Source of the DNA: Salinicola corii
Lineage (GTDB): Bacteria > Pseudomonadota > Gammaproteobacteria > Pseudomonadales > Halomonadaceae
NCBI RefSeq assembly: GCF_008298015.1
Contig: NZ_VTPX01000003.1
Span: 36,290 to 68,289 of the forward strand
Length of the DNA stretch: 32,000 nt
Direction: 5' to 3'
Shown here: piece after piece, positions 2,352 to 27,294 of the stretch
Layout of the letters: every line of letters begins with the position of its first letter
How positions within the stretch are numbered: the stretch's first letter is position 1
Notes under the pieces: model-generated
The model's database searches: none
The model's input: the letters and a program-made list of their open reading frames with translations, nothing else
Told to the model about the DNA's origin: nothing
Made by a program: the position numbers and the translations under genes

Positions 2352-2436
2352 ATTCATGATGCTGGCTCACGCGCCGTCTTGAAACCGCAAGGCGGCGGAA
2401 ACTCGGTCGCTGCGCAGCCGATTGCTGAATCCGATA

Positions 2437-2474: not shown

Positions 2475-2485
2475 GGAGTAGTCTC

Positions 2486-2737: not shown

Positions 2738-2988
2738 AACTTATCTTCTCCGAGAACGCTTGGGAAGATTATCTGTACTGGCAGAAAACCGACAAGAAGC
2801 TCGTTATCCGAATCAACAAGTTAATCCAGGAGACGAAACGAGAGCCATTCGAGGGTGTTGGCAAACCGGAACCCCTCAAACACAGTCTCGCTGGTTATTG
2901 GTCTCGCCGAATCAACGACGAGCACCGCATGGTCTACAAGGTCATGGAGGACGCCTTGCTTCTTGCCCAGCTTCGGTACCACTACTGA
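2734..2988 (+). CDS. yoeB: Toxin YoeB (ribosome-dependent mRNA interferase, module 2)
   Basis: 84 aa, colinear by eye with E. coli YoeB (MKLIFSENAWEDYLYWQKTDKK...PFEGVGKPEPLKHSLAGYWSRRINDEHRMVYKV...LRYHY). Confidence 0.95.
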   Translation: MKLIFSENAWEDYLYWQKTDKKLVIRINKLIQETKREPFEGVGKPEPLKHSLAGYWSRRINDEHRMVYKVMEDALLLAQLRYHY

Positions 2989-2993
2989 CGGCT

Positions 2994-3052
2994 TGTTCAC
3001 ACTATCCATGCAGCCGCGATGGAGCCGGTTTTTCGTGAGGCTAGTGTGAACA
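2994..3052. repeat. Perfect 11-bp inverted repeat in the convergent yoeB / AOS intergenic region
   Basis: TGTTCACACTA (2994-3004) and its exact reverse complement TAGTGTGAACA (3042-3052), separated by 37 nt that contain a T5 run (3029-3033). It sits 6 nt after the yoeB stop and 9 nt after the AOS stop. Possible bidirectional terminator or recombination/boundary site. Confidence 0.5.
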
Positions 3053-4383: not shown

Positions 4384-7300
4384 GATTCGCCTCTCTCGGT
4401 CCCGCTATCGTCCCGAGACTCGGCGCCATTCTGAAGCGCGTCGACGCCGTGCTGGGCGGCAAGGCCGCTGAGTGCATCCTCGTCGCTGTCGGTCTCGGTA
4501 TCGTCGCCACGCAGCTTGAGCATCAGGTAGTCGCACAGCTTGGCCAGCGTGTCGGCCTCGCTAAGCACCATCACCGGCACCTGAATGCCCAGACGGGCTT
4601 CCAGTGCCGTGACAAGCTCGACGCCCATCAGCGAGTCGAAGCCCATGTCGTAGACGGACTTGTGGATATCGATCTTCTCCTCGTCGATCAGCAGAATCTT
4701 GGCGAGTTCCTTGCCGAGAACTTCGGTCAGAGTGGTGTGGAGCGCTTCGGGTGACAGGCTGGCCAGCAGTTTTTGCAGGTCATCGTCACCTTCCTGACCG
4801 CCGTCATCCTCGGCAGTACGGGCGATTTCGCGGTAGCGTGGCGCTTCCGCCGTGGGCAGGAAGCGTGCCAGCGCTCGCCAGTCGAGTTCCAGCACGCCGA
4901 GCGAGGCGACATCGGCCACCAGCATCTGCTCGAGTACGGCCAGCGCGTCGCTGGAGGCCAATGCCTGGCCGCCGAGGCGTTCCTGCAGGCTGTCGCGGGT
5001 CTGGGTATTGCGCGCCAGAAAGCCGACATCCTCGATTGCACCCCAGCGGACCACCGTCGCCGGGCGACCGTTGGCGCGACGGTTGGCGGTGAACGCCTCC
5101 AGCCAGTGGTTGGCGGCCACGTAGCTGGCCTGACCGGGGTTGCCGAACAAGGTGGTGGCAGAGGAGTAGACAACGAAGAAGTCGAGTGCATCGTTCGCCG
5201 TCAGCGAGTCCAGGTGACGAGCGCCCTCTAGCTTCGGTGCCATCGCCTGGCGGATGCGTGCTGCGTCGAGATTGCGGATCAGACCGTCGTCGATGACGGT
5301 GGCGGCATGTACGATGCCGCGAATCGGGCCGAGGCTCTCACGCGCTTCGTCCAGCACCCGCTCTAGCGCCTTGGCGTCGGTCACGTCACAGGCGCGGGCA
5401 GCGACCGTCACGCCGAGAGCTTCCAGCCGCTCGATGCTGGCCTCGGCTGCCTCGGTGACAGCACCGCGGCGGCTCAATAGCAGCAGCTGGCGCGCGCCTT
5501 TGGCGGCCAGCCATTCGGCGCTCGCAAGGCCGAAGCCGCCGAGTCCGCCGGTCACCACGTAGGTGCCCGTCGCGTCCAGCATCAGCGGAATATCCCTGGC
5601 GGGCGCGGGCGCCATTGTCGGCGGTCGCTCGTAGGTGACGACGACTTTGCCGATCTGGCGCGCCTGTTGCATGTAGCGGAAGGCCTCGACCACGCGATCG
5701 CTGCCGAACGCGATGTATGGCAGCGGGGCGAGCGTGCCGTCGGCGAACAGGGTCATCATCTCGCTGAACAGTTCGCCGGTGAGATCTGGAAGTTCGCTCA
5801 TGAGCTGGTCGGAATCGACCCCGAAGTAGCTCAGATTGTTGCGGAACGGGCGCAGGCCGACCTTGGTGTTCTCGTAGAAGTCGCGCTTGCCGAGTTCAAT
5901 GAAGCGGCCGAACGGCTTGAGTACCCGCAGGTTCTGGTTGATCGCCTCGCCGGCCAGCGAGTTGAGCACCACGTCGACACCATCGATGCCGATGCGCTGA
6001 CCGTTGCCGCCGTCTCTCGATGCCTGACGTTCGACCGCGTTGTCATGGAGGATCTCCTCGGCGAAGGTCAGGCTGCGCGAGTCGTAAATGCGATCAACGC
6101 CCGTCAGACGCAAGAAGTCCTGCTTCTCCGGCGAGCCGACGGTGGCGTAGATCTCGGCTCCCAGCCAGCGTCCGACCTGGATTGCGGCCAGGCCGACGCC
6201 GCCGGCCGCGCCATGGATCAGCAGCCGCTCGCCGGGCTGCACGCGGGCCAAATGCTTGAGCGAGTAGTAGACGGTGAAGAAGGTCGTCGGGATCGTCGCA
6301 GCGGCGGCGTAGCCGATCTCCGCGGGAATCGGCGCCACGGCGTTGACGTCGGCGATCAGGCGATCGCTGAAACTCGCGGGGCCGAAGCCGACCACGGCAT
6401 CGCCCGGGCGCAGCGACCCGTTTGGATCGCCGACGCTGACGACTTCTCCGGCAAACTCCAGGCCCAGCGTCGGTCCGGCAAAGCCGTTCTCGATCGCCTC
6501 GTCGGAGAGCAGGCCGAGCGCATACATGACATCGCGGAAGTTGAGGCCGGTGGCCTTGACCGCGATCTCGACCTGGCCGGGCTGCGGCGCGGGCAGGTCG
6601 TGCGGCCGCCAGCGCAGATGACGCAGCTGCCCCGGCAACTCGAAGCCCAGGCTGACAGCGCGATCGTGTCCGGGCCGCTCCTCGCTGGGCCGGGTGCCCG
6701 GCGCCGGTGCCAGGGCCAGGCGGGGCACCCAGCGCTGGCCTCCGGCGTCGAGCACGACCTCGGTTTCCGCATCCGGCATGCTGAGTTCGAACAACACGGC
6801 ATCCAGCAGCTCGCTCGACAGCGAGTCCCGACTCGACAGCGGCAGATCCAGTAGCCGAACCTGTCGGTTACCGGCCTCGTTCTGCAGCGATCGGCCGAAG
6901 CCCCACAAGGCTGCGTCTTCAGCTAGCTTGGAAATACCGGACTGCCCGGATGATTCAGGCCGCGAAACCGGGTCGGCTGCGGCCTCGGGCAGTATGAAAA
7001 AGTGGGCTCCCACGCCGAGTGTGAGCCACCACAGCGCGGCGTCGCTCTCCATCGACTCCAGCGTCTGCAGCCACTGGGCGGCCAGCACGCAGCGATCGTC
7101 GGCCGCGCTTGCCAGGCCACGCAGATCGACGATCTGACTCGGGGTGAAGGACTCCAGCGCCAGCGGCAGCAGTTCGCCAGGCATCAGCTCGCTGCCGGCC
7201 AGGTGGTGGACGGCCTGGCCCAGTGTCTTGAAGCGGGAGACGAGCTTGGAGGCCAGCCATTGAGAGCTGTCGTCGCTGACCACCAGCCACTGCTCGGTAT

Positions 7301-10300
7301 CATGGGCCGAGTCGTCACGGGCGGTTCCGGGCTCTGCCTCCGCCGTGGCGGAAGACAACGGTGCCTGAGCGGTCAGTAACTGCAGACCGCCCTGGTCGTT
7401 CTCCAGCGTGTGGCGTTCGAGCTGACGGTAGCCCAGTGCTTCCAGTCTGTGGCGGGTCGTCTCGAGATCGGCGGGGCGTGAATCGGGCGCCATCGCCAGT
7501 GACAGGAACGACTGCCAGTCGGTGTCGCCCAGTGCCAGCAACGCGATCTGCGCGTCGTCCGCCAGTTGTCCCGGCAACCACTGCAGCAGCGTATCGATCT
7601 CGTCCTGGGTGCCATCCAGCGTGACCAGTGCGACATTGGCACCGATCGCGGGAGGGGCGGCGTCAACCGTCAGCAGGTCGACCCTGGCATCGTGTTCCGC
7701 CAGGGATTCGGCTTCATTCAGGGCGTTGTCGCGCAGGGCGACGAAGCGATACTGGGCGCGATCGCCGCTCAATCCGCCCATCAATCGTTCACCGAGCTGC
7801 GGGCGCAGCGCCGAGGCTTCTAGCATCACCAGCCGCTGGTGGGGCGGCAGCAGCTCAAGCGACATGGCGTACTGGGCCAGCCAGGTATCGGCCAGGGCGT
7901 GCCAGCCGCGTTCGCCGACGGCGGCCTGTACCAGTTTCGTCAGGCGGGGGGCGTCCAGACCCAGCGAGGGGACATCGAGACGCTCTTTGAGCCAGTCCGT
8001 CAGATGGAGGCCGAAACGGCCGATGCTGTGGGTCAGCGCGGCGTAGTCCGGGTAGTCCCGGATCAGCAGATTCCAGACCGTCGCCGCATCGATCTCCGGC
8101 GCTTCCTGCAACTGCCAACCGGCCGGCGTTTCCGTCACGATGCCGATGGCAAGCGCTAGGTCGACCAGCGCCTGGCGGCGTTGGCGGATCTCGCTCGCGC
8201 CGGCATCGAAATGGCCCGCCAGCAGTTGACCGTCGCTGTCGGCGTGGCTGCGCAGGGCCTCGTCGAGAAACGCCGAGACCAGGGTCTCCAACAGCGGCTC
8301 GACCTCGTCGCCGTAACGGCTTCCGGTCACGCTCCGGTAGTTGTCGACCAGTTGCGCCAGTGCCAGCTCGGCGGTGGTCTCGTCCAGCGGCAACACGGCA
8401 GCTTCGCGCGGAGCCGGAACGAGGCGATGGTCGAGATAGCTGAGTCGATGCTGTACCGCGTGGCGCAGACGGGCGGCCTTGAAACGGGCGCCTTCGACCA
8501 CCGCCACGGCATTGCCAGTGGCATCGAACAGTGCCACGTCGGCACACAGCGAATGCGGCGCGCGGCTGGTGAGGCGTACTTCCATCCACGCTGGCGGCGC
8601 AGCATCGACCTGCAGTTGCAGCCGTTCAAGGCGCACGGGCACGAAGGCCAGTCCGCCTCCCTTGGCGAGTTCGTCGGCCAGCAGCGGAATGAATAGCTGG
8701 AAGGCGCTGTCGAGGATACCCGGTGCCAGCAGGCAGTCGCGCTGGTCCTCGGCGATGGCGGCGGGCAGGTCGATGCGACCCAGCGCGCGGTCGCCCTCGA
8801 CCCAGACTTCGCTGATCGCCTGGAAGCCCGGCCCGTACTCGAGCCCGACGTGAGCGGCCATCGCCAGATGCTGTTCTCGGGTGACGTCCGCCGGCCGGTC
8901 GGGCAGTGGCGTGCCGCGGCGAGTCAGCAGCAGGCCACGGGTCTGCACCGTGATCCGGGCCCGGGCGTTAAGGGTCCAGGCATCCTCGCTGGCCGGCTCG
9001 CGGGTCTTCATGGTCAGGGAGCCATCGGCATCCTGGATCTCCAGTTGCAGCTTCTTGCCATGGACGGCGTCGAGCAGCAGCGGGCTGAGAATCTCCAGCG
9101 CCTCGATATCGAGCACTGGCGATGCCTTGGCGGCGGCCGCTGCGGCAAGTGCCAGTTCGGCAAAGCCCGCGCCCGGGAATACCGTGGCGTCGCCGACGCG
9201 GTGATCGGCCAGCCACGGAAGGCGGCGGGTATCGAGTTGGCTTTCCCACGCCATTCCTTGGCGAGCCAGGCGATAACCCAGTAGCGGGTGTTCGTAGTGG
9301 CGTCCCATCAGTCCCTGGGAGTCTCCGGTAGCCTTGACCCAGTACCGCTCGCGCTGCCATGGATAGCGCGGCAGGTCGACGAAACGACCGCTGACAGGGA
9401 ACCACGCCTTGGGAGAGACGGCGCCGCTGACCAGTAGCGCGGCGAGACTGGCATCCATGGCGGTGGCGCCGTCGTGCTCGCGACTCAGCGTGCCGATGAC
9501 GCTGCCGGTGACCGACTGCGCGGAGAAGGCGTCAGTCAGGTAGCGTCGCAGAATCGGTTGCGCGCCGATCTCGACGAAGGCTCGAGCCCCCGCTTCGAGC
9601 AATGAATCGACCGCCGGTGAGAACTGCACCGGTTCGCGGATATTGAGCCACCAGTACTCGGCGCCCAGTTCTCTGCCGTCCAGCGCTTTGCCGGCCACGG
9701 TCGAGATGAACGGTATCCGGGTGGCGGAGGGCTTCAGATGCGAGAGGGCGTTGATGACCTCCTGGCGAATCGGATCCATGGCCGGGCTGTGGAAGGCATA
9801 GTCCAGCGCTAGGCGCTTGGCGAAGATCCGCTCGTCGGAGAGTGCCGCTTCCAGGCGTTCCAGCGCATCCGCTGGGCCGGCCAGGGTGACGCCCTTGGGG
9901 CCGTTGACGCCGGCGATCACGATCGCCGAGTGAGCGGGGGCTTCCAGCCAGCGCTGCATGGCTTCGGCGCCGAGGCCGACAGCGGTCATCTCACCGCTGC
10001 CGCGGGTGCGGCCTTGGCCGGCGCTGCGATAGTAGATGACGCTGACAGCGTCGGCCAGGCCAAGCGCGCCACAGGCCCAGGCCGCGGCGACTTCACCCAC
10101 GCTGTGGCCGATGACAGCGGCGGGGCGCACGCCCTCGGACTCGAGCAGTCGGGTCACGCCGACCTGCAGCGCGAACAGCGCGGGCTGGGCGATCTCCGTG
10201 AGGGCCAGCCGATCGCCTCTCTCCACGGCCTCGTGCTGGTTGGTGCCATCGAGTTCGGCACGCAGCGAGAAGTCGGCGTGTTTCGCGAACAGTGCGTCGA

Positions 10301-11972
10301 CTTCGTCGACGGCAGCGGCGAAGACAGGGGACTCCCTCAGCAGCGTGCGACCCATCGCCGTCCACTGGCAGCCGTTGCCGTCGTAGACGAACACCGGGCC
10401 GTAGCCGGCATCGACGCGCTCGCCGAGGGCGGCGCCGGGTACGCTCTCGGCGGCGGCCAGCGCGTCCAGGCGGGTGATCGCGTCGGCGGTGTTGTCGCTC
10501 AGCAATATCGCTGCGTGGGGGTGCTGTTCGCGGCGGAAGGCGAGGCTGTAGGCGGTGTCGTAGAGCGAGACATCGCCAGCCGTGAGGCTGTCGCTGAGGC
10601 GCGCGGCGAACTCGCGCAGCGCTTCCGGGCTGCGAGCGCTCAAGCACAGCGGGAGACGCCGAACGGGCGACTCGGCGACCTCGGCTGCTGGCGTTTCCGG
10701 CGGCGACTGCAGGATGACGTGGGCGTTGGCGCCCCCGAAACCGAACGAGTTGATGCCGATGGTGAGTTGCCCCTCGGCCTTCAGCTTGCGCGGTTTGTCG
10801 ACAATGTCGAGGTTCCAGCCCTTCAGGGCGATGCGCGGATTGACCTTGCGAATGCCGATGGTGGCGGGAACTTCACGCTCACGCAGCGCATAGAGCGCCT
10901 TGGCGAGACCGGCGATGCCGGAGGCGGTTTCCAGGTGACCGAGGTTGCTCTTGACTGAACCGATCGGCAGCGGCGTCTGGCGCTTCTGGCCGATTGCCGC
11001 GCCGATGGCGCGGGTCTCCAGCGGGTCGCCGACGGCGGTACCGGTGCCGTGGGCCTCGAGGTAGTCGAGGTCGTCCGGCGTCAGCCCGGCACGCGCCAGG
11101 GTCTGGGTCATCAACGCGACCTGGGCGTCGGGATTGGGGACCGTCAGGCCCTTCTTGAAACCGTCGGTGTTGACGCCGCTGCCGGCGACCACGGCCAGAA
11201 TGCGATCGCCATCCTCGAGCGCCTTGTCGTAATCCTTGAGCAGGAAGACCCCGCCGCCCTCGGAGCGCACGTAGCCGTCGCCGGACTCATCGAACACCTG
11301 GCAGCGTCCGGTGGGCGAGAGCATGCTCGCCTTGGAGAAGATGATGAAGCCGAACGGGTGCAGGTGCAGGCTGATGCCGCCGGCCAGCGCGATCTCGGTC
11401 TCGCCGCTGCGGATCGACTGGCACGCCTGGTGGAAGGCGACCAGCGAGGACGAGCAGGCGGTATCCATCGACATGCTCGGGCCATGCAGGTCGAACACGT
11501 AGGAGATTCGGTTCGAGGCGATACTCGAGGTATTGCCGGTCGCCGTCGAGGTGTCGATCACCGACATGTCGTCGGCCATGCGGTAGGAGTAGTCGAGACT
11601 GGAGATGCCAAGGAAAACGCCGCACTGGCTGCCGCGCAGTGTCTGCGGTGGAATGCCGGCGTCTTCCATGGCTTCCCAGGTCATCTCCAGCAGAATCCGT
11701 TGCTGTGGATCCATCTGGGTAGCTTCGCGCGGCGAGATGCCGAAGAAACCTGCGTCGAAACCGGAGATGTCGCCGAGACTACCGGCGGCGAAGGTGTAGC
11801 TGGTGCCGGGATGCTGCTTGTCCGGGTGGCGATAGGCTTCCAGGCCCCAGCGGTCGTCTGCGACCATGGTGACGAGATCTTCGCCGGTCTTGAGCGCTTG
11901 CCAGAAACGTTGTGATGTCGGAGCGCTCGGAAACCGGTGAGCCGCGCCGATGATGGCAACGCGTTTGGTCAT
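4380..11972 (-). CDS. Type I polyketide synthase, FAS-like fully reducing: KS-AT-DH-(degenerate MT/psiKR)-ER-KR-ACP, no release domain
   Basis: KS: DTACSSS (Cys codon 11454-11456), HGTGT, GHLE. AT: GHSVGE (Ser codon 10101-10103), YAFHS. DH: HRVGDATVFPG (His codon 9201-9203). ER: LIHGAAGGVG. KR: TGGLGGFG ... YSSATTLFGNPGQASYVAAN. ACP: GFDSLMG (Ser codon 4632-4634). The start is placed at the ATG at 11972 (MTKRVAIIGAAHRFP) because AAGGAG (complement of 11978-11983) lies 5 nt upstream. The ORF track extends to 12020. Confidence 0.95.
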   Translation of the reverse strand: MTKRVAIIGAAHRFPSAPTSQRFWQALKTGEDLVTMVADDRWGLEAYRHPDKQHPGTSYTFAAGSLGDISGFDAGFFGISPREATQMDPQQRILLEMTWEAMEDAGIPPQTLRGSQCGVFLGISSLDYSYRMADDMSVIDTSTATGNTSSIASNRISYVFDLHGPSMSMDTACSSSLVAFHQACQSIRSGETEIALAGGISLHLHPFGFIIFSKASMLSPTGRCQVFDESGDGYVRSEGGGVFLLKDYDKALEDGDRILAVVAGSGVNTDGFKKGLTVPNPDAQVALMTQTLARAGLTPDDLDYLEAHGTGTAVGDPLETRAIGAAIGQKRQTPLPIGSVKSNLGHLETASGIAGLAKALYALREREVPATIGIRKVNPRIALKGWNLDIVDKPRKLKAEGQLTIGINSFGFGGANAHVILQSPPETPAAEVAESPVRRLPLCLSARSPEALREFAARLSDSLTAGDVSLYDTAYSLAFRREQHPHAAILLSDNTADAITRLDALAAAESVPGAALGERVDAGYGPVFVYDGNGCQWTAMGRTLLRESPVFAAAVDEVDALFAKHADFSLRAELDGTNQHEAVERGDRLALTEIAQPALFALQVGVTRLLESEGVRPAAVIGHSVGEVAAAWACGALGLADAVSVIYYRSAGQGRTRGSGEMTAVGLGAEAMQRWLEAPAHSAIVIAGVNGPKGVTLAGPADALERLEAALSDERIFAKRLALDYAFHSPAMDPIRQEVINALSHLKPSATRIPFISTVAGKALDGRELGAEYWWLNIREPVQFSPAVDSLLEAGARAFVEIGAQPILRRYLTDAFSAQSVTGSVIGTLSREHDGATAMDASLAALLVSGAVSPKAWFPVSGRFVDLPRYPWQRERYWVKATGDSQGLMGRHYEHPLLGYRLARQGMAWESQLDTRRLPWLADHRVGDATVFPGAGFAELALAAAAAAKASPVLDIEALEILSPLLLDAVHGKKLQLEIQDADGSLTMKTREPASEDAWTLNARARITVQTRGLLLTRRGTPLPDRPADVTREQHLAMAAHVGLEYGPGFQAISEVWVEGDRALGRIDLPAAIAEDQRDCLLAPGILDSAFQLFIPLLADELAKGGGLAFVPVRLERLQLQVDAAPPAWMEVRLTSRAPHSLCADVALFDATGNAVAVVEGARFKAARLRHAVQHRLSYLDHRLVPAPREAAVLPLDETTAELALAQLVDNYRSVTGSRYGDEVEPLLETLVSAFLDEALRSHADSDGQLLAGHFDAGASEIRQRRQALVDLALAIGIVTETPAGWQLQEAPEIDAATVWNLLIRDYPDYAALTHSIGRFGLHLTDWLKERLDVPSLGLDAPRLTKLVQAAVGERGWHALADTWLAQYAMSLELLPPHQRLVMLEASALRPQLGERLMGGLSGDRAQYRFVALRDNALNEAESLAEHDARVDLLTVDAAPPAIGANVALVTLDGTQDEIDTLLQWLPGQLADDAQIALLALGDTDWQSFLSLAMAPDSRPADLETTRHRLEALGYRQLERHTLENDQGGLQLLTAQAPLSSATAEAEPGTARDDSAHDTEQWLVVSDDSSQWLASKLVSRFKTLGQAVHHLAGSELMPGELLPLALESFTPSQIVDLRGLASAADDRCVLAAQWLQTLESMESDAALWWLTLGVGAHFFILPEAAADPVSRPESSGQSGISKLAEDAALWGFGRSLQNEAGNRQVRLLDLPLSSRDSLSSELLDAVLFELSMPDAETEVVLDAGGQRWVPRLALAPAPGTRPSEERPGHDRAVSLGFELPGQLRHLRWRPHDLPAPQPGQVEIAVKATGLNFRDVMYALGLLSDEAIENGFAGPTLGLEFAGEVVSVGDPNGSLRPGDAVVGFGPASFSDRLIADVNAVAPIPAEIGYAAAATIPTTFFTVYYSLKHLARVQPGERLLIHGAAGGVGLAAIQVGRWLGAEIYATVGSPEKQDFLRLTGVDRIYDSRSLTFAEEILHDNAVERQASRDGGNGQRIGIDGVDVVLNSLAGEAINQNLRVLKPFGRFIELGKRDFYENTKVGLRPFRNNLSYFGVDSDQLMSELPDLTGELFSEMMTLFADGTLAPLPYIAFGSDRVVEAFRYMQQARQIGKVVVTYERPPTMAPAPARDIPLMLDATGTYVVTGGLGGFGLASAEWLAAKGARQLLLLSRRGAVTEAAEASIERLEALGVTVAARACDVTDAKALERVLDEARESLGPIRGIVHAATVIDDGLIRNLDAARIRQAMAPKLEGARHLDSLTANDALDFFVVYSSATTLFGNPGQASYVAANHWLEAFTANRRANGRPATVVRWGAIEDVGFLARNTQTRDSLQERLGGQALASSDALAVLEQMLVADVASLGVLELDWRALARFLPTAEAPRYREIARTAEDDGGQEGDDDLQKLLASLSPEALHTTLTEVLGKELAKILLIDEEKIDIHKSVYDMGFDSLMGVELVTALEARLGIQVPVMVLSEADTLAKLCDYLMLKLRGDDTETDSDEDALSGLAAQHGVDALQNGAESRDDSGTERGES

Positions 11973-12009
11973 TGGGACTCCTTGCTTCGTAGCATGGGCT
12001 ACGCCTTTC

Positions 12010-13569
12010 TCAATTCGCACCGCGCCTTCCAGCGTGGTCGATAATCCTGTCGTAGATTGTTACTCCCAGCTTATCGGCTGGAAGCGTCATCCGCACGTTA
12101 TCCCCCGAACGGGGTGCGGTCTGCCAGATGAAATAGTTCGTGAAACCATCCGGCTCACCGTGTCGTGCGTAGACTTTCGGCATGATCGGCACGTGATCTC
12201 CGTAAAAACCCAGAATGCCGGGCCGTCCGCCTTGATGAAGAGAGTCCCTGAGTCGTTCCAGCATACTATCGGTGTTGCGTAGATGCTTCAGATAAACCGT
12301 CAGCTCTTCGCAATCGTCGGTAACGCCGCCTTCAACCCAGCGTTCGGCGACGGCCGGGTCCGCCGTCTCCAGGTGGAGCGGGCCGTGATTCTCCATGCTG
12401 ATCACGAAAATGAACAGCGGTTTCTCGTCGGCTATCGTCAGCCGTTTCCGAACCCGCTCCGCCAGCGCGAGATCGCCGGTGTACTGGCCGTCGCGCTCGT
12501 CGATATCGAAGTCGGCGATATCGACGAAGGTCTCGAAGCCCAGGTTGGGATAGACCTTGTCGCGCAGATAGAAGCTGGCGGGATAGGGGTGAATGCAGAC
12601 CGTCCGGTAGCCCAGGCGCTTGAGCGCGCCGGCCAGGTTGTTGACCGGTAGCTTCGATAACTGGTGGTAGGGGTTGAAACGATGCACGCCGAGACGGGAT
12701 GGCGTGAGCCCTGTCAGTACCGCACACTCCGTGCGCACGGTGTTGGCGCCCCAGGCGGGCACGTCGAAACGGCCGGCCTGCAGGGCTTCGGCCATGAGCG
12801 CGTCATACGTGCCTAGCAGATCGCGGCGAATGGCCTGATGCCAGTCGCGAGGGTCGAAGAACGACTCGCTCTGGACCAGCACCACGTTCGGCAGCGTGGC
12901 GGGATCCATGCTGTCCATATCCAGATCGACCGGCAAGGCGAAGGCGCTGTCGTTGTCCTGACGGTCGATCGGCTCACGTGTCAGGCGACCATAGGCCCAG
13001 AGGTAGGGATAGAGGCCGAGCCTGACCAGGTCGTCGTTGGGTTCGAGCGTACAACCCGTCAGCCGGGGCAGTTGCCAGATCAGCACGGCGATACTGGCCG
13101 CGACCAACACCAGGGTGCCCAGCAGCGACCACGGCGCGTCGGCATGGCCGTAGAGCGAGGGCTCGAGCCAGAAGCCGATACCGATCGCGATGGCGCCGGC
13201 CAGGCTGGCGGCGATGGTCAGACCGATACCGAAAAAGGGGATGTAGAGGCGGGGATGGCGAACCGCATCGACGAAGTACTCGAAGTCTTGGCACAGAAAG
13301 GGTTCACGCAGCGAGCTCGACTTGGTGTTGTTGACCTGGATCACCACCATCTGCAGCGAAGCGGCGATCACCAACGCAAACCAGGGGCGCTGCACGATCA
13401 ACAGCCAGAAGGCGAAATGCAGCACGGCGGTGGCCAGGTGAACGGCAACTGCTGCCGGCGCGCGCTGCCACAGCAGCCGGGGGCGCGGTTTGAGCAGCAG
13501 TTCGAACAGGCTGGTGACGACCAGCGTGGCCACCGTCGCCCAGACCCCGTTCCAGAATCCATGAATCAT
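12010..13569 (-). CDS. LTA-synthase / OpgB (MdoB) / sulfatase-family membrane phosphotransferase
   Basis: 519 aa. About five N-terminal hydrophobic helices (aa 1-180), then an alkaline-phosphatase-superfamily domain (VVLVQSESFFDP, GANTVRTECAVLTGL with candidate Thr nucleophile, FVISMENHGP, GFYGDHVP). ATGA overlap with the SDR stop at 13566-13569. Confidence 0.8.
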   Translation of the reverse strand: MIHGFWNGVWATVATLVVTSLFELLLKPRPRLLWQRAPAAVAVHLATAVLHFAFWLLIVQRPWFALVIAASLQMVVIQVNNTKSSSLREPFLCQDFEYFVDAVRHPRLYIPFFGIGLTIAASLAGAIAIGIGFWLEPSLYGHADAPWSLLGTLVLVAASIAVLIWQLPRLTGCTLEPNDDLVRLGLYPYLWAYGRLTREPIDRQDNDSAFALPVDLDMDSMDPATLPNVVLVQSESFFDPRDWHQAIRRDLLGTYDALMAEALQAGRFDVPAWGANTVRTECAVLTGLTPSRLGVHRFNPYHQLSKLPVNNLAGALKRLGYRTVCIHPYPASFYLRDKVYPNLGFETFVDIADFDIDERDGQYTGDLALAERVRKRLTIADEKPLFIFVISMENHGPLHLETADPAVAERWVEGGVTDDCEELTVYLKHLRNTDSMLERLRDSLHQGGRPGILGFYGDHVPIMPKVYARHGEPDGFTNYFIWQTAPRSGDNVRMTLPADKLGVTIYDRIIDHAGRRGAN

Positions 13570-14342
13570 CGCTGCGCTCCGTCGCCGTGGTCATAGCCGA
13601 ACCACTTGAGCAGGCGTTGCGAGATCGCCGCCGGCAGCACGGCCAGCCACCAGCTGCCGAAATTGAGCGGGAACGGGAAGCTGATCCGGGCACGGTTGCG
13701 CTCGATACCCTGGGCGATGACCCTGGCGGCGCGCTCGGGTTGCCAGATAAATGGCTTGGGACCGAGCATCTCATGGCACATCTTTGAACTGACGTAGCCC
13801 GGCATGACCACGGTGATGCCGACGCCGCGAGGCGCCAGCCAGCCGCGAAGCGCTTCACCGTAGGCTTTCACCCCGGCCTTGCTGGCGCTGTAGCTCGGTG
13901 TGACCGGCAAGCCGTGATAGGCGGCGAGCGAGCTCATCAGCACCAGTTGGCCGCGTCCCGCCGCGCGCATGCGCTTGCCAAGGAAGTTGCCCATTGCCAT
14001 CGGCACACGCAGGTTGATATCGAGCAGGCGGCTGGCGTCTTCCCATGGCTCGCCGCTGCCGTCTTCGCCGATGTTGATGTTCATGCCGGCGTTGACGATG
14101 ACAATGTCCGGCGGAGTGGGGGCGCACAGCGAATCGAGCCAAGCGAACAGGGCGTCGTCGTCGCCCAGGTCGATCTGGCTGTATTCGACCTCGGCGCCGG
14201 ATTCGCGACAGGTTGCCGTCAGCGATTCGAGCACTTCGCGCTGGCGGCCATGCAGCACCAGCCGATTGCCGGGCCTGGCGTAGACGGCGGCCAGTGCCTG
14301 TCCGATGGCTCCGGTGGCGCCGGTAATGACGATTCGAGTCAT
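13566..14342 (-). CDS. Short-chain dehydrogenase/reductase (SDR) with hydrophobic C-terminal tail
   Basis: 258 aa. Cofactor loop ITGATGAIGQAL, NAG motif (IVNAGMN), catalytic YSASK. The C-terminal FPFPLNFGSWWLAVLPAAISQRLLKWF looks membrane-associating. ATGA overlaps at both ends (14339-14342 and 13566-13569). Confidence 0.88.
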   Translation of the reverse strand: MTRIVITGATGAIGQALAAVYARPGNRLVLHGRQREVLESLTATCRESGAEVEYSQIDLGDDDALFAWLDSLCAPTPPDIVIVNAGMNINIGEDGSGEPWEDASRLLDINLRVPMAMGNFLGKRMRAAGRGQLVLMSSLAAYHGLPVTPSYSASKAGVKAYGEALRGWLAPRGVGITVVMPGYVSSKMCHEMLGPKPFIWQPERAARVIAQGIERNRARISFPFPLNFGSWWLAVLPAAISQRLLKWFGYDHGDGAQR

Positions 14343-15586
14343 GACGCGATCTCATCCATGAGTTGTTGCAGCGGAGAGCGATCTCGCTGCAGCGCCTGAA
14401 GGGCGTTTTCCGAGGCTAGCTCGATCCCGGGGCGGCAGTAAAACCCGCCATTGATCTGAACCGTCTGGGCAACGGTTCGTCGATAGGCCCGGAAGAGTCC
14501 CGCTTCCGGAGCGGGCGTATTGTGCCAGAAATCGTCCAGCTTGCCTTGATGGGTCAGGCCCGCCATGTCGTAAATCGGTGAGGCCAGGGCGTGAGTCGGG
14601 CAGCCGAAGCCTAGCGAGACGTTGCCGGCGGTGCTGTTGACCGTGACCAGACCGCTGGCGTGCTTGAGTAGTGCTTCGAGGCTCCCCCCTTCGAGATAGA
14701 CCAGGCGATCACCTAGATCGTACTCGTGGGTCAGCACCTTTATCAGCCGCGCGTACTGGGCCAGGCCCATGTCGAGCGGGTGGTTCTTGATCACCAGCAA
14801 GGCATCCCTCGGCGCATGGTAGGCAAAGGACGCGGCCACCTTCCCGATCACCTCCTGCATGTTCTTGTAGTCCGAGTGATAGCGAACCTGGGCGTCGCTC
14901 TTCAGTTGCAACGGCAGCAGATAGAACGGACGCCTGGAAGCCATCAGCGCTTCGACGCGCTGCTTGTCCCGGCGTTTCAGGTAGGGCATGCGCATCTTGC
15001 GCAGCACGAAGCCTGCGTATTCCACGGGGGCGGTGACCAGGGCGTGGTTGCGATAGTGGGGATGCAGGAACGGGTTGGCGACGCCAGCCAGGTGATAGAG
15101 CACATCGTGGCGCGCGCGCATGTGGAACTGGTTGGGAAAGGACTGGGGACGACCGGCGCTGGGCAGGCGCTCGCCGGCCGCGCGATACCAGTCGGGATCC
15201 CGGGGCAACAGCGAGTGCGCATTCACGCCCTCGCGTTCCAGCGTCACCCAAAAGGGGCGAAAGTAGCCCTCCTCGAACACGTGGTTGCGGATACCCCGAC
15301 GTCTGGCGGCAAGGATGGCGCGCCGATGAACGGGACGGCGGTCTCCGAAGACGATCTGGTCGGTAATCTCGTGTCGATCCCAGATGCCGGAGAGGTATTC
15401 GGGGATGTCCTTGGCCTGGCCGCGGTAGGCATAGGTGTTTTTCTGCCGCCAGTAGACACTGTCGCCGACGGTGAAGTTGACCTTGATGACCGAGTGTCCC
15501 GCTTCCCGCAGTCGCGCGCCCAGCCGGTCGAAAAAAGGTGAGCAGACACCCTGTAAAAGAAGAAAGTGTTTGCGTGTCGTGCTCAA
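14339..15586 (-). CDS. kpsS: KpsS-like capsule-linker beta-Kdo transferase homologue
   Basis: Colinear by eye with E. coli KpsS (HFLLLQGVCSPFF, FEEGYFRPFWVTLEREGVNAHS, FYLLPLQLKSDAQV, IKNHPLD, VTVNSTAGN). The start is uncertain. TTG at 15586 sits 1 nt after the kpsC stop (TGAcTTG) and gives 415 aa. GTG at 15664 would overlap kpsC by 77 nt. Confidence 0.82.
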   Translation of the reverse strand: MSTTRKHFLLLQGVCSPFFDRLGARLREAGHSVIKVNFTVGDSVYWRQKNTYAYRGQAKDIPEYLSGIWDRHEITDQIVFGDRRPVHRRAILAARRRGIRNHVFEEGYFRPFWVTLEREGVNAHSLLPRDPDWYRAAGERLPSAGRPQSFPNQFHMRARHDVLYHLAGVANPFLHPHYRNHALVTAPVEYAGFVLRKMRMPYLKRRDKQRVEALMASRRPFYLLPLQLKSDAQVRYHSDYKNMQEVIGKVAASFAYHAPRDALLVIKNHPLDMGLAQYARLIKVLTHEYDLGDRLVYLEGGSLEALLKHASGLVTVNSTAGNVSLGFGCPTHALASPIYDMAGLTHQGKLDDFWHNTPAPEAGLFRAYRRTVAQTVQINGGFYCRPGIELASENALQALQRDRSPLQQLMDEIAS

Positions 15587-15587
15587 G

Positions 15588-17648
15588 TCATTGCCTTTTG
15601 GAGAACAGATTGCGGTATAGCCGGTAGAGGCGGACTCGGAGCGGCAATCCCGAGCGCCGATCACGCTGTTGCTGCATCAACTCGGTGGCGGTATCGGCGT
15701 TGCAGAACTCGCCGGTGACCGGGTCGACGTAGGTTGGATACAGTAGCAGAGCGCCTGCGACCAGGGCATCGAGGGTTAGCTGCCGCTGACGCCGCGGGGA
15801 GGATAACCGGTCGCGGGTCAGTCCCCAACCGGCATAGAACGGCAGGCCGTAGGTGTGCACTTCCACGCCGCGCATCAGACCCTCGAAGCCGGTCAACGAG
15901 CACATGGTATGGATCTCGTCGGCCAGCTCGATCAGGTCGATGATGTCGCAGTCGACCAGTTCGAGGTCGTAGAGCGTTCGCGCCGTCTTGTCGAGCAGGC
16001 CAAGCCGGGCGCCCGAGACCACGTCGGGATGCGGCTTGTAGATAACGAAGGCGTCGGGCCGATTCTGCCTAACGGCCTCGAGCAGCGCCTGGTTGGTCTT
16101 GATCTCGGGAGAGCCGTAGGCGATCGAGGCGTCGCTCTCGACCTGGCCGGGCACCAGCACGACCGGTCGTGAGCCGATTGCGTCCATCGGCAGCGAGGGT
16201 CGCGTCTTGCCTTGCACGTTGTACTTCGAGAGCTTGAGCTCGGTGAGACGTTGGCGCAGGCGCCCGGCGCGGGCCAGCAGAGTCGGTTCGAAGTCCGTCT
16301 CGGTGAGCAGTCGTTCGAGATCGCTTTCGTGATCGGCGTCGTAATAGAGTCCGCGGGAGTCGAAGGCCAACGACAGTGGCCGGATCAGATCGACTCCCAG
16401 CCCGACCGAACGCACGAAACCATCCTCCATCCGCCACAGCTCGAGTCCGTGCTGGCGGCATAGCGCCTTGATCTTGTCGGTAGCCTTTTGCCCCCACACC
16501 ACCAGGCTGTCGCGGCCTTCGAGTTCATGGGGCCGCGGGTGATCGCCCGGAATGAAGCGCACGCTGGAGGCCGGACCGAGAAAATCGGTAATGAAGGCAC
16601 GCTTCCAACTGGAAAATCCGACGGCCAGCCAACGTCCCGCCAGTCGATCCCGTTGACGCTTCTGGTCGGCGATCAGGTCGATCGTCGCCTCGAGCGTCGA
16701 CACCTGCCCGGTGTAGGGGTTGGCGTAGCGGCAATAGCGCAGATAGGCCGCGGCGAACAGTTCCAAAAGCGTGCGCTCGCGCTGGCGGCGTTCGCAGCGC
16801 AGTGCATCCCGAGTCAGGCCCCAGCCGGCATAGAACGGCATGCCGAAGCAGTGCACCGGCTTTTCCGCCATCAGCGCCTCGAATCCCAGTTGGCTGGTGA
16901 CCACGTAGACCGCGTCGGCGGCGTCGATCAGCGCCCACGGATTGATATCGTTACCGATTAGCCGGCAGCGCGGATGCGCCGAGGCGCGGGTCAGGTAGCC
17001 CTGCTTGCGTCCGGCGATGACGTCGGGATGGGTCTTGATCAGAATTTCGGCATTGGGGTGATCGTCGATCGCGTTTGCCAGCATGCGCTGGAACGAACCG
17101 GCGTCGGCCATGCCATGGGTAATCGAGGCGTCGTCACGCGTCTGGTCGATGACCAGGACGCGGGGCCGGTCGGCGGGCTCGAGCGGCCGATCCGGGGCGT
17201 GGTTGTACTTCGACAGCCGCAATCGACGCAAGCGCTGCATGGCTTGGTCGGCGCGTGCCAACTCATCCGTGCCGAAGGTCGCCTCGGCGAGAAGCGTCTC
17301 CAGGTCCGAGGGCCGGGTCGCATCGTAGTAGATGCCGCTGTAGTCCACGACCAGGCTATGGGGCTGGGAGTAGTTGACGCCCAATCCCAGTGAACGCAGG
17401 AACCCGTCCTCGATGGCGATGTAGGGCAGGCCCCGGCGTGTGGCCAGGCGACGTGCCTGTTTCGACGTCGGCTTCAGGCCCCAGCCGAGAATGGCGTCGA
17501 CGGGCTGGCGGCTACCGGGCTTGAGGCGAACCTGACGCGAGTACTCCGGCAGCAGACAGCGGATGATGTTCCAGCGGGCCAGGCCCTTGGAGAGATAGCC
17601 GGCCACGCGATGGTAGGACGGTCGCAGGACTGTCGAATCGTTATGCAT
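15588..17648 (-). CDS. kpsC: KpsC-like two-module beta-Kdo transferase homologue
   Basis: 686 aa, colinear by eye with E. coli KpsC. An internal duplication is visible: IEDGFLRSLGLGV...GIYYDATRPSDLETLL / MEDGFVRSVGLGV...GLYYDADHESDLERLL; LSKYN twice; IKTHPDV / YKPHPDV; FYAGWGLTRD twice. Confidence 0.9.
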   Translation of the reverse strand: MHNDSTVLRPSYHRVAGYLSKGLARWNIIRCLLPEYSRQVRLKPGSRQPVDAILGWGLKPTSKQARRLATRRGLPYIAIEDGFLRSLGLGVNYSQPHSLVVDYSGIYYDATRPSDLETLLAEATFGTDELARADQAMQRLRRLRLSKYNHAPDRPLEPADRPRVLVIDQTRDDASITHGMADAGSFQRMLANAIDDHPNAEILIKTHPDVIAGRKQGYLTRASAHPRCRLIGNDINPWALIDAADAVYVVTSQLGFEALMAEKPVHCFGMPFYAGWGLTRDALRCERRQRERTLLELFAAAYLRYCRYANPYTGQVSTLEATIDLIADQKRQRDRLAGRWLAVGFSSWKRAFITDFLGPASSVRFIPGDHPRPHELEGRDSLVVWGQKATDKIKALCRQHGLELWRMEDGFVRSVGLGVDLIRPLSLAFDSRGLYYDADHESDLERLLTETDFEPTLLARAGRLRQRLTELKLSKYNVQGKTRPSLPMDAIGSRPVVLVPGQVESDASIAYGSPEIKTNQALLEAVRQNRPDAFVIYKPHPDVVSGARLGLLDKTARTLYDLELVDCDIIDLIELADEIHTMCSLTGFEGLMRGVEVHTYGLPFYAGWGLTRDRLSSPRRQRQLTLDALVAGALLLYPTYVDPVTGEFCNADTATELMQQQRDRRSGLPLRVRLYRLYRNLFSKRQ

Positions 17649-17895
17649 GGGTCACAGAAAGCGGGTGCGGTCCGTCGAGGAAATGTCATGTCACTGCCTT
17701 GGGCGCTGGCCCGACGCAACCGGCCCGAGTCCGGAGCGTGAGGCAATCTGGTGCGCAGTGTAACGCAAACCGCGGATCGAGGGCGCGTTTCGGCTGTATC
17801 GAATTGCTAAGCGCCGGGATTTTTCGTAATCATGTAATGCCCCCTGTTTTCTGCACACCCTACGCAGCTAATGCGGGATGTGCTCGGGGTGCCAC

Positions 17896-17980
17896 CTAGT
17901 CCAGAGACTGATGCGGCCGCTCTTCGTTGAAGTGAGTGTTGTGTTTTGAGTCAAGGAGCTTGAAAGTGCTTCTTACTGCG
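17896..17980 (-). pseudogene. Remnant of a transposase/integrase (rve core domain C-terminus)
   Basis: The minus-strand reading frame ends ...AVRSTFKLLDSKHNTHFNEERPHQSLD*. The (Y/F)NxxRPHxSL motif is the hallmark end of DDE/rve transposase catalytic domains (IS3/IS481-type). The upstream part of the 127-aa ORF has no transposase character and overlaps ligB, so only about 27 codons look genuine. Confidence 0.45.
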
Positions 17981-18124
17981 CTTCCCTCGATCGACCGAGC
18001 TCCTTTTTTGGGCCTGCAGCAGCATGGCCTCAGGATGGTTTGCGAGGGTTGATTGGTGGCGGTAATATGCGATTCTAGGCTGAGCGGCAGCCAGGGCAGG
18101 CAACCAACTGAATATGGCGGTGGT

Positions 18125-19897
<1,773 letters not shown>

Positions 19898-25779: not shown

Positions 25780-27294
25780 ATGACATCAACCATGACTGAG
25801 AGGCACCGAGATCTTGATTTCGATCTGGTCGTTCGCAATGGAAAAGTGGCGACGGCGAGCGATACCTATCGGGCGGATATTGGCATTATCGATGGGCGCA
25901 TCGCTGCCATCGCCAATGGACTGCCGACGGGGAAGCGTGACATCGATGCGGGAGGGCGCTGGGTGATGCCCGGTGGCGTCGATAGCCACTGTCACGTCGA
26001 GCAGCTTTCGGGGATGGGCCTGATGTGTGCCGACGATTTCTACTCGGCAACAGTCTCGGCCGCGTTCGGTGGCAACACCACTATCATGCCCTTCGCGGCG
26101 CAGCATCGTGAGGATCGCGTGCGTGACGTTCTTGAGGACTATCACGCGCGTGCGGTGGAGAAGTCGGTCATCGACTACGCCTTTCACGTGATCGTCACCA
26201 ATCTAGACGAGCAAACCCTGAACGAAGATCTGCCACAGGCTATCCGTCAGGGCATTACCTCGCTCAAGGTTTTCATGACTTATGAGCGCATGAAGCTCGA
26301 CGATTATCAGATTCTCGACACGCTGGCGCTTGCCGATCGCGAAGGCGCGTTGGTGATGGTTCACGCGGAGAACAATGATGTCATCCGCTGGCTGGGGGAT
26401 CGCCTGACCGAACGCGGCTTGCAGGCGCCCAAGTACCATGCGATCGCCCACTGCGGGCTCGCCGAGACCGAGGCCACCCATCGTGTGGTCACGTTGTCGC
26501 GGATATTGGAGACTCCCATCCTGATCGTGCATGTCTCCGAGGCCGAAACCCTCGACTGCATTCGTCAGGCTCAGCAGAAGGGAGCGGCCCTCTACGCCGA
26601 AACCTGCCCTCAGTACCTTTTCCTGACTGCCGCCGATATCGACAAGCCAGGTGTCGAGGGCGCCAAGTTCTGCTGCAGCCCGCCGCCGCGAGACGAACGC
26701 TGCCAGGGCGCCATGTGGCAAGGACTCATGGAGGGCTCACTGAGCCTCTATTCTTCGGACCACGCGCCATATCGATGGGACGAGACGGGTAAGTTGCCGA
26801 AGGGTGAAAAGACCGGGTTCCGCGAAATGGCGAACGGTCTGCCGGGCCTAGAAGTGCGAATGCCCTTGCTGTTCAGCGAGGGATACCGCAAAGGCCGCCT
26901 GACCATCAATGAATTCGTTGCGCTGACTTCAACCAACCATGCCCGAACCTATGGGCTCTATCCGCGCAAGGGCACCATCGCTGTTGGGTCGGATGCGGAC
27001 CTCGTCATCTGGGACGAGGCGCGAGAAGTCACCATTACCAACGATCTTCTTCATGACAACGTCGACTACACCCCCTATGAGGGCATGAAAGTGACTGGCT
27101 GGGCAGACACCGTGATCAATCGAGGACGCGTCGTTGTCGAGAATGGAGAACTCAAGGTCGACCGTGGAACGGGCGAGTTCTTGCCCTGCGGTCTCCCCGA
27201 ACCGGTGGCCAAGGCTCGTGCCAATCGCGAACCCGATACGCTGATTCGCAAGCTGGTGGGGCTATCGTCGGGTGCGCAGAATCATGATGCATGA
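25780..27294 (+). CDS. D-hydantoinase / dihydropyrimidinase
   Basis: Colinear by eye with Agrobacterium-type D-hydantoinases: GGVDSHCHVE (HxH), ITSLKVFMTY (carboxylated Lys context), VMVHAENND, LYSSDHAPY, GTIAVGSDADLVIWD. Start chosen at ATG 25780 (GGAG 5 nt upstream). In-frame alternatives at 25765, 25792 and 25732. Confidence 0.9.
   Translation: MTSTMTERHRDLDFDLVVRNGKVATASDTYRADIGIIDGRIAAIANGLPTGKRDIDAGGRWVMPGGVDSHCHVEQLSGMGLMCADDFYSATVSAAFGGNTTIMPFAAQHREDRVRDVLEDYHARAVEKSVIDYAFHVIVTNLDEQTLNEDLPQAIRQGITSLKVFMTYERMKLDDYQILDTLALADREGALVMVHAENNDVIRWLGDRLTERGLQAPKYHAIAHCGLAETEATHRVVTLSRILETPILIVHVSEAETLDCIRQAQQKGAALYAETCPQYLFLTAADIDKPGVEGAKFCCSPPPRDERCQGAMWQGLMEGSLSLYSSDHAPYRWDETGKLPKGEKTGFREMANGLPGLEVRMPLLFSEGYRKGRLTINEFVALTSTNHARTYGLYPRKGTIAVGSDADLVIWDEAREVTITNDLLHDNVDYTPYEGMKVTGWADTVINRGRVVVENGELKVDRGTGEFLPCGLPEPVAKARANREPDTLIRKLVGLSSGAQNHDA

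Follow-up and report, generated by a model that had tools for sequence, protein, structure and literature searches.

A wcb/rkp-type lipid-carrier and Kdo-primer operon in Salinicola corii and its probable link to a capsule export locus on the same contig

The rkp-1 module and its copy in Salinicola corii

In Sinorhizobium, the rkp-1 genes have been assigned to the synthesis of a specific lipid carrier for the K-antigen and for the poly-Kdo (Kdo, 3-deoxy-D-manno-octulosonic acid) capsule, and rkp-1 mutants lose the capsule (PMC4881576). The wcb and rkp genes are equivalent, and WcbR/RkpA form a named class of mono-modular polyketide synthases (PKSs) in capsule clusters (PMC3908369). The lipid-carrier chemistry of these genes touches a major virulence factor of Burkholderia pseudomallei and a symbiosis factor of rhizobia. 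In Cobetia marina KMM 1449, described in 2025, kpsSC followed by wcbPQRT, designated 'lipid carrier biosynthesis', lie beside kpsDMTE and the genes for 3'-phosphoadenosine 5'-phosphosulfate (PAPS) in a cluster for a sulfated capsule (PMC11766843). Halomonas piscis has been annotated with WcbR and WcbQ (PMC10752968). Here we describe an operon of the same type in Salinicola corii, which begins with kpsC and kpsS and lies in a 32,000-nucleotide (nt) stretch of contig NZ_VTPX01000003.1 (positions 36,290 to 68,289), hereafter the window. The module, known as rkp-1 from the 1990s on and already described in the Halomonadaceae with Cobetia, thereby gains one more species. We consider it probable that this kpsC-kpsS-wcbPQRT copy is a 'lipid carrier plus Kdo primer' module serving an export and biosynthesis locus on the same contig, at a distance of about 30 genes.

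The six genes form one tightly packed operon on the minus strand (window 17648-3061). The first, kpsC (wcbA-like; 15588-17648; KAA0019042.1), encodes a dual-module beta-Kdo transferase of 686 residues, and the second, kpsS (wcbO/rkpJ-like; 14339-15586; 415 residues; KAA0019041), a single-module Kdo transferase. They are followed by the genes for a ketoreductase of the short-chain dehydrogenase/reductase (SDR) family (wcbP/rkpH-like; 13566-14342; 258 residues; PF00106, E 3.6e-29; KAA0019040) and for a membrane phosphotransferase of the LtaS/GacH family (wcbQ/rkpI-like; 12010-13569; 519 residues; PF00884; KAA0019039). A mono-modular, fully reducing type I PKS/fatty acid synthase (FAS) (wcbR/rkpA-like; 4380-12020; 2546 residues) and a pyridoxal phosphate (PLP)-dependent alpha-oxoamine synthase (wcbT/rkpG-like; 3061-4383; 440 residues; PF00155; KAA0019037) are encoded last. 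According to the list of open reading frames (ORFs) of the window, adjacent genes share 4 nt at kpsS/SDR, SDR/LtaS-like and PKS/oxoamine synthase, where the stop codon of one runs into the start codon of the next, and the LtaS-like and PKS genes overlap by 11 nt. The kpsS ORF spans 14339-15664 (441 codons), and the annotated start, ATG 15586, gives the protein of 415 residues and leaves a gap of 1 nt between kpsC and kpsS.

None of the six ORFs is truncated, the 7.6-kb PKS gene included. Four genes were tested for selection against Salinicola sp. CPA57, with dN/dS values of 0.089 for kpsC, 0.083 for kpsS, 0.154 for the SDR gene and 0.156 for the LtaS-like gene. Judged from these four, the operon genes are intact and under purifying selection.

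At the level of sequence, the operon has every feature of the rkp-1/wcbPQRT lipid-carrier module. The gene order kpsC-kpsS-SDR-lipoteichoic acid (LTA) synthase-PKS of Cobetia is identical to that of S. corii, the retrieved Cobetia stretch ending inside the PKS gene, and the operon proteins of the two are 50-60% identical. The export operon of Cobetia adjoins divergently, whereas S. corii has a junction with an insertion sequence (IS) remnant at this place and its export locus appears to lie about 30 genes off. In Cobetia amphilecti the operon is divergent from kpsD-kpsM-kpsE-kpsT, and in Salinicola endophyticus and CPA57 from cysD-cysNC-PF16587-kpsD-kpsM-kpsT. Salinicola avicenniae has prc-ligB directly upstream of the operon, as does S. 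corii, and carries cysDN-kpsDMTE-rml/ugd about 20 kb past the oxoamine synthase gene on one contig.

Outside this family, the rkp-1 region of Sinorhizobium meliloti (rkpA/G/H/I/J, rkpU and kpsF) encodes the same set of five proteins and stands apart from the main export and serotype region, as in S. corii. By tblastn, its locus matches the S. corii PKS at 36-40% identity, the oxoamine synthase at 49%, the SDR at 27%, the LtaS-like protein at 39% (C-terminal half) and KpsS at 38%. It differs in belonging to an alphaproteobacterial symbiont, in its permuted order with the PKS gene first and kpsS last, in having no kpsC in the retrieved stretch, and in its direct flanks, a polysaccharide export gene and kpsF. 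The capsular polysaccharide I (CPS-I) locus of B. pseudomallei, with wcbA as KpsC, wcbO as KpsS and wcbP/Q/R/T, has the same module as S. corii by the published equivalence of wcb and rkp (PMC3908369) and by the wcbPQRT names given to the Cobetia genes (PMC11766843). It contains an additional wcbS (LpxC-like in Caballeronia), which is missing from S. corii, and there the module sits inside one complete capsule locus. The DPQQR and HGTGT motifs given for the WcbR/RkpA class (PMC3908369) are intact in the S. corii PKS.

The linkage of these genes recurs in more distant replicons. kpsS stands directly before the SDR gene in S. corii, other Salinicola, Cobetia, Chitinilyticum and a Pseudomonas plasmid, and is adjacent in Sinorhizobium meliloti and Acidisoma. 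The trio of oxoamine synthase, SDR and LtaS-family genes is present in Sinorhizobium meliloti and in seven further loci. In Chitinilyticum, kpsS-SDR-LtaS-like and PKS-oxoamine synthase adjoin kpsMTED. Plasmid pL21564-1 of Pseudomonas sp. TMW 2.1634, a mobilizable (MOBP) plasmid from poultry meat, carries kpsC, kpsS and the SDR, LtaS-like, PKS and oxoamine synthase genes, and its PKS is 48% identical to that of S. corii. The presence of the module on a mobilizable plasmid is evidence for horizontal spread. Besides these, the plasmid has kdsA, kdsB and kpsF, another kpsC-like gene and the genes for a phytanoyl-CoA dioxygenase and a GNAT acyltransferase, and the additional N-acyltransferase and hydroxylase genes fit an amino-lipid product. 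Plasmid p2 of Caballeronia has SDR, LTA synthase, PKS, LpxC-like and oxoamine synthase genes followed by export genes; kpsS was not seen on this plasmid, the upstream side of which is broken by transposons. An Acidisoma plasmid (L022, 4293-14275) combines SDR, oxoamine synthase, a sterol-desaturase-family gene, KpsS- and KpsC-like genes, an LtaS-like gene and kpsE/M/T/D, and has no PKS gene; its acyl donor may be a housekeeping acyl-acyl carrier protein (ACP) or acyl-CoA.

The initial annotation of this DNA had singled out the two ORFs as a KpsC/KpsS pair with an internal duplication in KpsC, and Pfam, NCBIfam and the solved KpsC structures bear this out. The neighbours it had listed (a transposase scrap and ligB on one side, SDR, phosphotransferase and PKS genes on the other) are as described. 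Its impression of an unusual arrangement did not hold, the same six-gene set being found in relatives, rkp-1, wcb and Cobetia. It had also allowed for a loss of catalytic residues that would make the proteins pseudo-enzymes; the expected motifs are present in KpsC, KpsS, the PKS, the oxoamine synthase and the LtaS-like protein.

A probable capsule export locus beyond the window

Outside the operon, the window has no capsule export, Kdo-pathway or sulfate-activation gene among the 26 ORFs selected from the list of ORFs of at least 100 codons and searched with Pfam. KpsD/M/T/E/F, CysD/NC, the PF16587 protein and KdsA/B of relatives, used as tblastn queries against the 32 kb, found no such gene either, the sole match being a generic ABC-ATPase similarity of an amino-acid transporter at 27290-27526. 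The absence of kpsM/T/E/D and kpsF/U from the 32 kb, as reported in the initial annotation, thus stands.

The export genes were found elsewhere. KpsD of S. endophyticus as a query returned the 591-residue 'polysaccharide export protein [Salinicola corii]', KAA0019007.1. This number precedes that of the oxoamine synthase, KAA0019037, by 30, and both are recorded on a contig of 427,494 nt. Within the window the numbering from KAA0019037 to KAA0019047 follows gene order (a racemase is KAA0019046 and a LysR regulator KAA0019047). Read as an order of genes, these accessions would place KpsD about 30 coding sequences past the oxoamine synthase, off the left end of the window, which reaches only 3 kb past the oxoamine synthase toward this side. 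A KpsE search and cluster listing gave the 'chain-length determining protein [Salinicola corii]' (KAA0019352.1/WP_239023736), on a contig of 427,494 nt as well, and its S. salarius homologue matches TIGR01010 (BexC/CtrB/KpsE). This KpsE is 83% identical to that of S. peritrichatus, and the KpsD proteins of the two species are 82% identical, which suggests that the S. corii KpsE belongs with the S. corii KpsD. kpsD and kpsE are neighbours in S. salarius, CPA57, S. avicenniae and Cobetia.

Counterpart loci in relatives indicate what such a locus contains. It reads kpsD-kpsM-kpsT-kpsE-kpsF plus serotype genes in S. salarius, kpsD-kpsM-kpsT and then serotype genes in S. tamaricis, and kpsD-kpsM-kpsT-kpsE plus serotype genes in CPA57. 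kpsS was not found in the retrieved stretches of these three loci. On one contig of CPA57, the counterpart export locus begins at 47 kb and about 78-92 kb is taken up by the lipid operon, so that the two are about 30 kb apart as counted from the PKS end; this spacing equals that inferred for S. corii.

The isolated look of kpsC and kpsS therefore came from the edge of the window, and their description as orphans was an artefact of it: S. corii KpsD and KpsE are on record, with KpsD probably just off the window end. The proposal of the initial annotation that the pair provides an anchor for a capsule locus encoded elsewhere finds support in KpsD and KpsE. Other parts of that interpretation, among them the unusual arrangement, have to be given up. 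It had called the two proteins paralogues; they are the sole KpsS and KpsC named for S. corii among the matches listed, and they are orthologues of proteins of sister species at 82-90% identity. As evidence against its own reading it had named a kps locus elsewhere that lacks its own kpsC/kpsS and is simply complemented by these genes on phosphatidylglycerol acceptors, and this is half borne out. An export locus does exist, and on the lack of kpsS the retrieved counterpart stretches of the three relatives agree.

The weight that had been placed on the missing CMP-Kdo genes (CMP, cytidine monophosphate) was likewise too great. In other Gram-negative bacteria the lipopolysaccharide pathway supplies CMP-Kdo, and if it does so in S. 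corii, their absence would mean little. We therefore dropped the missing kpsF and kpsU as a meaningful sign; housekeeping Kdo genes should suffice, and kpsF is present in the distant locus of S. salarius.

The capsule loci of the distant type in two of the relatives also encode very large Capsule_synth proteins. In S. salarius (L007, 15413-18739) a protein of 1108 residues has Capsule_synth modules fused to a GT29 sialyltransferase-like domain, and in S. tamaricis (L008, 14504-18019) a protein of 1171 residues has Capsule_synth (Kdo-transferase-like) modules. They are probably polymerases for capsules that contain Kdo or nonulosonic acid.

Enzymes of the operon and the predicted capsule anchor

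KpsC has two stretches of PF05159 (Capsule_synth; E 1.4e-91). Its N-terminal half matches the solved KpsC-N structures (6MGB, 3.6e-84; the E. coli-type 6MGC, 7.3e-79) and its C-terminal half the solved KpsC-C (6MGD, 2.7e-68). Both halves align to one another and to KpsS, which has one PF05159 module (1.2e-79). KpsC keeps the motifs EDGFxRS, DQT..DAS, HPD and SQxGFE, and it has in common with KpsS the motifs EDGF/EEGY, (D)Q..DAS/DAQ, HPD/HPL and a SQxGFE-type segment. The assignment of the exact nucleophile residue in KpsC follows the literature.

KpsS is 100% identical to the 'capsular biosynthesis protein [Salinicola corii]' and had no sequence match among solved structures. It aligns to positions 12-389 of the 390 of the NCBIfam model NF050054, with 269 bits, under the equivalog cut-off of 600. 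By this measure it is a member of the KpsS family, a distant orthologue or a subfamily and not an E. coli-type equivalog. The group 2 KpsC-KpsS (GT107) of E. coli and Neisseria belong to the same enzyme families and have the same module architecture as the S. corii proteins. The group 2 loci of E. coli, however, contain no lipid-synthesis genes, while the S. corii operon has them.

The PKS has the domain order ketosynthase-acyltransferase (AT)-dehydratase (DH)-enoylreductase (ER)-ketoreductase (KR)-ACP and no thioesterase (Pfam). The motifs DTACSS, HGTGT, DPQQR, GHSVG/YAFH and GGVG and the DSL serine of the ACP are intact. The specificity motif of the AT, YAFH, is of an intermediate type, with the malonyl signature (HAFH) on one side and the methylmalonyl signature (YASH) on the other. 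Between DH and ER, at residues ~1200-1800, about 600 residues are without a Pfam match; as in animal FAS, this part may be a structural region of the pseudo-methyltransferase/pseudo-KR type.

The oxoamine synthase keeps the PLP lysine motif GTLSK. It matches the bioF, KBL and serine palmitoyltransferase (SPT) models of NCBIfam, each under cut-off, and is about equidistant from solved BioF/KBL and SPT structures, with SPT matches of 1e-52 to 1e-61. Because these models and structures score about equally, we dropped the assignment of an amino-acid substrate. The predicted chemistry is that of the bacterial sphingolipid pathway (SPT plus ketoreductase), in which an SDR-type reductase acts after an oxoamine synthase. 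The S. corii operon differs from this pathway in that the acyl donor would be a dedicated PKS-bound chain and in that it has no N-acyltransferase gene.

The LtaS/GacH-family protein has five N-terminal transmembrane (TM) helices and an alkaline-phosphatase-fold domain (PF00884, residues 227-473), and among solved structures it is closest to GacH, a phosphoglycerol transferase (4e-16). An AlphaFold2 (AF2) model (pLDDT 94.3) has five TM helices, the number also found in LtaS, and a Foldseek search with this model placed LtaP, GacH and LtaS at the top, followed by PbgA and MCR-1/EptA. Across 122 homologues, the metal-ligand and nucleophile positions E235, T277, H395, D458 and H459 show little or no variation. 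GacH, LtaS, LtaP and the S. corii protein have their fold and catalytic residues in common (a Thr nucleophile, with E, D and H as metal ligands), although sequence identity is only ~16-23% and the context here is a Gram-negative capsule.

The loops between the TM helices bear on the side of the membrane on which this domain works. LtaS has an N-in/C-out topology with an extracytoplasmic catalytic domain. In the 122 homologues of the S. corii protein, the mean number of K+R is 2.95 in loop 27-40, 4.4 in loop 81-112, 0.05 in the N-tail of ~3 residues and 0.63 in loop 132-148. With five TM helices and the positive-inside rule, these charges would put the catalytic domain in the cytoplasm, opposite to LtaS. 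They suggest, as a hypothesis taken from loop charges without a positive control, that the catalytic domain of the WcbQ/RkpI type faces the cytoplasm. A Bacillus LtaS-like match was tried as a topology control and was unsuitable, being a larger multi-TM protein.

The TM3-TM4 loop (residues 81-112) carries the conserved motif NAKxxxLREPFxxxDFxYFxDAxRHPRLYLPF. K83, E89, D95 and P106 of this loop are invariant in 59 sequences, and the loop is a candidate lipid-substrate site. We know of no equivalent of the motif in LtaS or GacH.

A route from acyl chain to capsule can be drawn from these predictions. Using its own ACP, the iterative reducing PKS would assemble a long, saturated acyl chain. Because the PKS has no thioesterase, the oxoamine synthase is the candidate offloading enzyme; it would condense the chain with a small amino acid, with decarboxylation, and so release a 2-amino-3-oxo lipid. 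The SDR would reduce the 3-oxo group to give a sphingoid-type amino alcohol. The LtaS/GacH-family enzyme would then add a phospho-head group, most likely the glycerol phosphate of phosphatidylglycerol (PG), to yield a lyso-PG-like product. The first beta-Kdo would come from KpsS, and both modules of KpsC would extend a short poly-Kdo linker, after which the distant locus, with its serotype-specific glycosyltransferases and its KpsMT-KpsED, would finish and export the polymer.

The conserved residues of the LtaS-family protein and its unusual loop charges make the path from lipid to KpsS acceptor a concrete, testable model. In its most specific form, a topologically inverted WcbQ/RkpI moves PG glycerol phosphate onto the PKS-derived sphingoid-type amino alcohol, and the resulting mimic of lyso-PG, not itself a glycerolipid, is a dedicated acceptor of KpsS. 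We regard this form as rather unlikely. If true, many alpha-, beta- and gammaproteobacterial capsules, those of B. pseudomallei and rhizobia included, would be held by an aminolipid anchor not described before, and WcbQ/RkpI would become the first enzyme of the LtaS/EptA class to face the cytoplasm. A PKS-derived acceptor in general has been a standing hypothesis for rkp-1/wcb modules for 30 years, and this analysis neither proves nor refutes it.

Several points weigh against a lipid-carrier module that serves the distant locus. E. coli and Neisseria KpsS reportedly act on (lyso)PG without any wcb-like module, and the poly-Kdo anchor of Sinorhizobium meliloti is said to be a phosphoglycerol with a hydroxy fatty acid, with no amino lipid. 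To our knowledge, all characterised enzymes of the LtaS/GacH/EptA type work outside the cytoplasm, and KpsS and KpsC work inside it. The solved relatives GacH, LtaP, LtaS, EptA/MCR-1 and PbgA all have extracytoplasmic catalytic domains. The KpsE accession KAA0019352 is, for no apparent reason, out of positional order with respect to KpsD KAA0019007; either the numbering is non-positional for KpsE or the S. corii locus is rearranged. KpsM and KpsT of S. corii, and the lack of a second kpsS at that locus, are expected from its relatives. No chemically identified lipid product of any rkp-1/wcb module was found in the literature examined, and little is known about the wcbPQRT proteins according to the authors of the Cobetia study (PMC11766843), so that the first four steps of the route and their link to KpsS are drawn from domain logic and gene linkage.

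The extracytoplasmic domains of the solved relatives would suit an alternative in which KpsS and KpsC prime ordinary PG, as in E. coli, and the products of wcbPQRT are not part of the acceptor pathway. The LtaS/GacH-like enzyme would then be periplasmic and modify the polymer, the Kdo linker or the anchor with glycerol phosphate or phosphoethanolamine. The lipid of the PKS, oxoamine synthase and SDR would be a separate envelope lipid or would be attached later. GacH does decorate a polysaccharide with glycerol phosphate, and the motifs of S. corii KpsS and KpsC are the same as those of the PG-using E. coli enzymes. The capsule of Cobetia marina has Man-6-P-glycerol as a substituent, and the study that describes it proposes WcbQ for the transfer (PMC11766843). 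We nevertheless consider this alternative possible but clearly the less likely one. The LtaS-like gene travels with kpsS and the SDR and oxoamine synthase genes across alpha-, beta- and gammaproteobacterial loci that differ in their serotype genes, which argues for a role at the conserved lipid end and not for a serotype-specific decoration. In addition, 4-nt overlaps bind the LtaS-like gene to the lipid genes, and the loop charges of the 122 homologues favour a cytoplasmic catalytic domain.

It is very unlikely that the operon is independent of a capsule and that its product is a free envelope aminolipid or glycolipid, capped with Kdo, which needs no KpsMT-KpsED export. Such a role would agree with a 32-kb window without an export gene and with an operon that is kept and constrained though the adjoining capsule locus is gone. 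It is opposed by the records of KpsD and KpsE on a contig of 427,494 nt and by the contexts of the close homologues examined (at least 37% identity, plus Acidisoma at 30%), which adjoin ATP-binding cassette (ABC) export or Kdo-pathway genes. The loss of the capsule in rkp-1 mutants of Sinorhizobium, the sole source of genetic evidence on this point (PMC4881576), opposes it as well. A Roseomonas homologue (33%), the sole more distant one checked, stands alone.

The ligB-kpsC junction and minor features

On its upstream side the operon is flanked by the housekeeping gene ligB (18125-19867, minus strand; KAA0019043; 675 bits with NF005987, over the cut-off of 498), and Prc is encoded in the same upstream neighbourhood. 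A Salinicola metagenomic contig (L023) matches the window here, with Prc 98.7%, the M18 peptidase 97% and LigB 94.5% identical, and the homology ends at 18109, 16 nt past the ligB stop. Homology to the region upstream of kpsC in CPA57 begins at 17840, with the start of kpsC about 190 nt downstream of this point; by blastn, window 17727-17840 and 17500-17677 match it at 76-89%. The region 17649-17840 (minus strand), conserved with relatives, is the presumed promoter and leader of kpsC. A scan of the operon for promoters and terminators gave none above chance, and the sigma-70 consensus gave no promoter in 17649-17840.

The 268 bp between these two blocks (17841-18108) read ...HFNEERPHQSLD followed by a stop, a DDE-integrase C-terminal motif; the minus-strand translation ends in ...LLDSKHNTHFNEERPHQSLD and a stop. 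We take the junction to contain the C-terminal remnant of a DDE integrase of an IS from its FNEERPHQSL motif, which is typical of such C-termini. The 75-residue junction peptide had no tblastn match among plasmids.

In relatives, a capsule locus occupies the place of this junction. The replaced locus (L023, 11778-21761; L016, 1-7938) contains cysD, cysNC, kpsD/M/T/E, glycosyltransferases and a second kpsS. In L023, ligB is followed by a KpsS paralogue of 416 residues (12007-13257) with a single Capsule_synth module and 42.5% identity to the KpsS of the window, and then by glycosyltransferases. A Salinicola metagenome-assembled genome (MAG), whose KpsC falls in the 90% cluster of S. corii, has accessions ending in 303 for the SDR, 305 for KpsC, 312 for KpsE and 326 for LigB, a spacing that implies about 20 capsule-locus genes between kpsC and ligB. 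The simplest reading of these comparisons is an IS-associated deletion of the adjacent capsule locus that spared the operon and the promoter region of kpsC. ligB also adjoins kpsC in S. avicenniae, and the history of the junction may therefore be more complex. That the operon is a functionless leftover of this loss, on its way to pseudogenes, can be dismissed as highly improbable: an IS remnant does lie exactly at the junction and about 20 genes of close relatives are missing, but the six ORFs are full length, the intact motifs and dN/dS of 0.08-0.16 (four genes) argue against pseudo-enzymes or decay, the kpsC upstream region is kept, and a second export locus is present.

S. corii is thus a natural variant in which the adjoining capsule locus appears to be gone and a second one lies, by accession order, about 30 genes off. 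It could offer a clean background in which to see whether one lipid/Kdo-primer operon serves a distant locus.

Strains with an L023-type locus have two KpsS-type genes, and S. corii is without the copy that follows ligB. Many Salinicola species have two paralogous ABC capsule export loci, with two KpsD and two KpsE clusters that are about 70% identical mutually, and in CPA57 two export loci (L016 and L017) flank the lipid/Kdo-primer operon on one contig. The link of one type of locus to PAPS synthesis suggests a sulfated capsule, and the Stealth, LicD and Glyphos_transf genes of the other type suggest a phosphate-containing polymer. Of the two types, S. corii seems to have retained just the one with Stealth, LicD and Glyphos_transf genes.

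At the opposite end of the operon, between its last gene and the TRAP transporter genes, lies a region (1600-3050) with two plus-strand ORFs (1789-2193 and 2610-3038) that have no Pfam or NCBIfam match. Its GC content is 0.55-0.59, compared with 0.63-0.69 in the operon.

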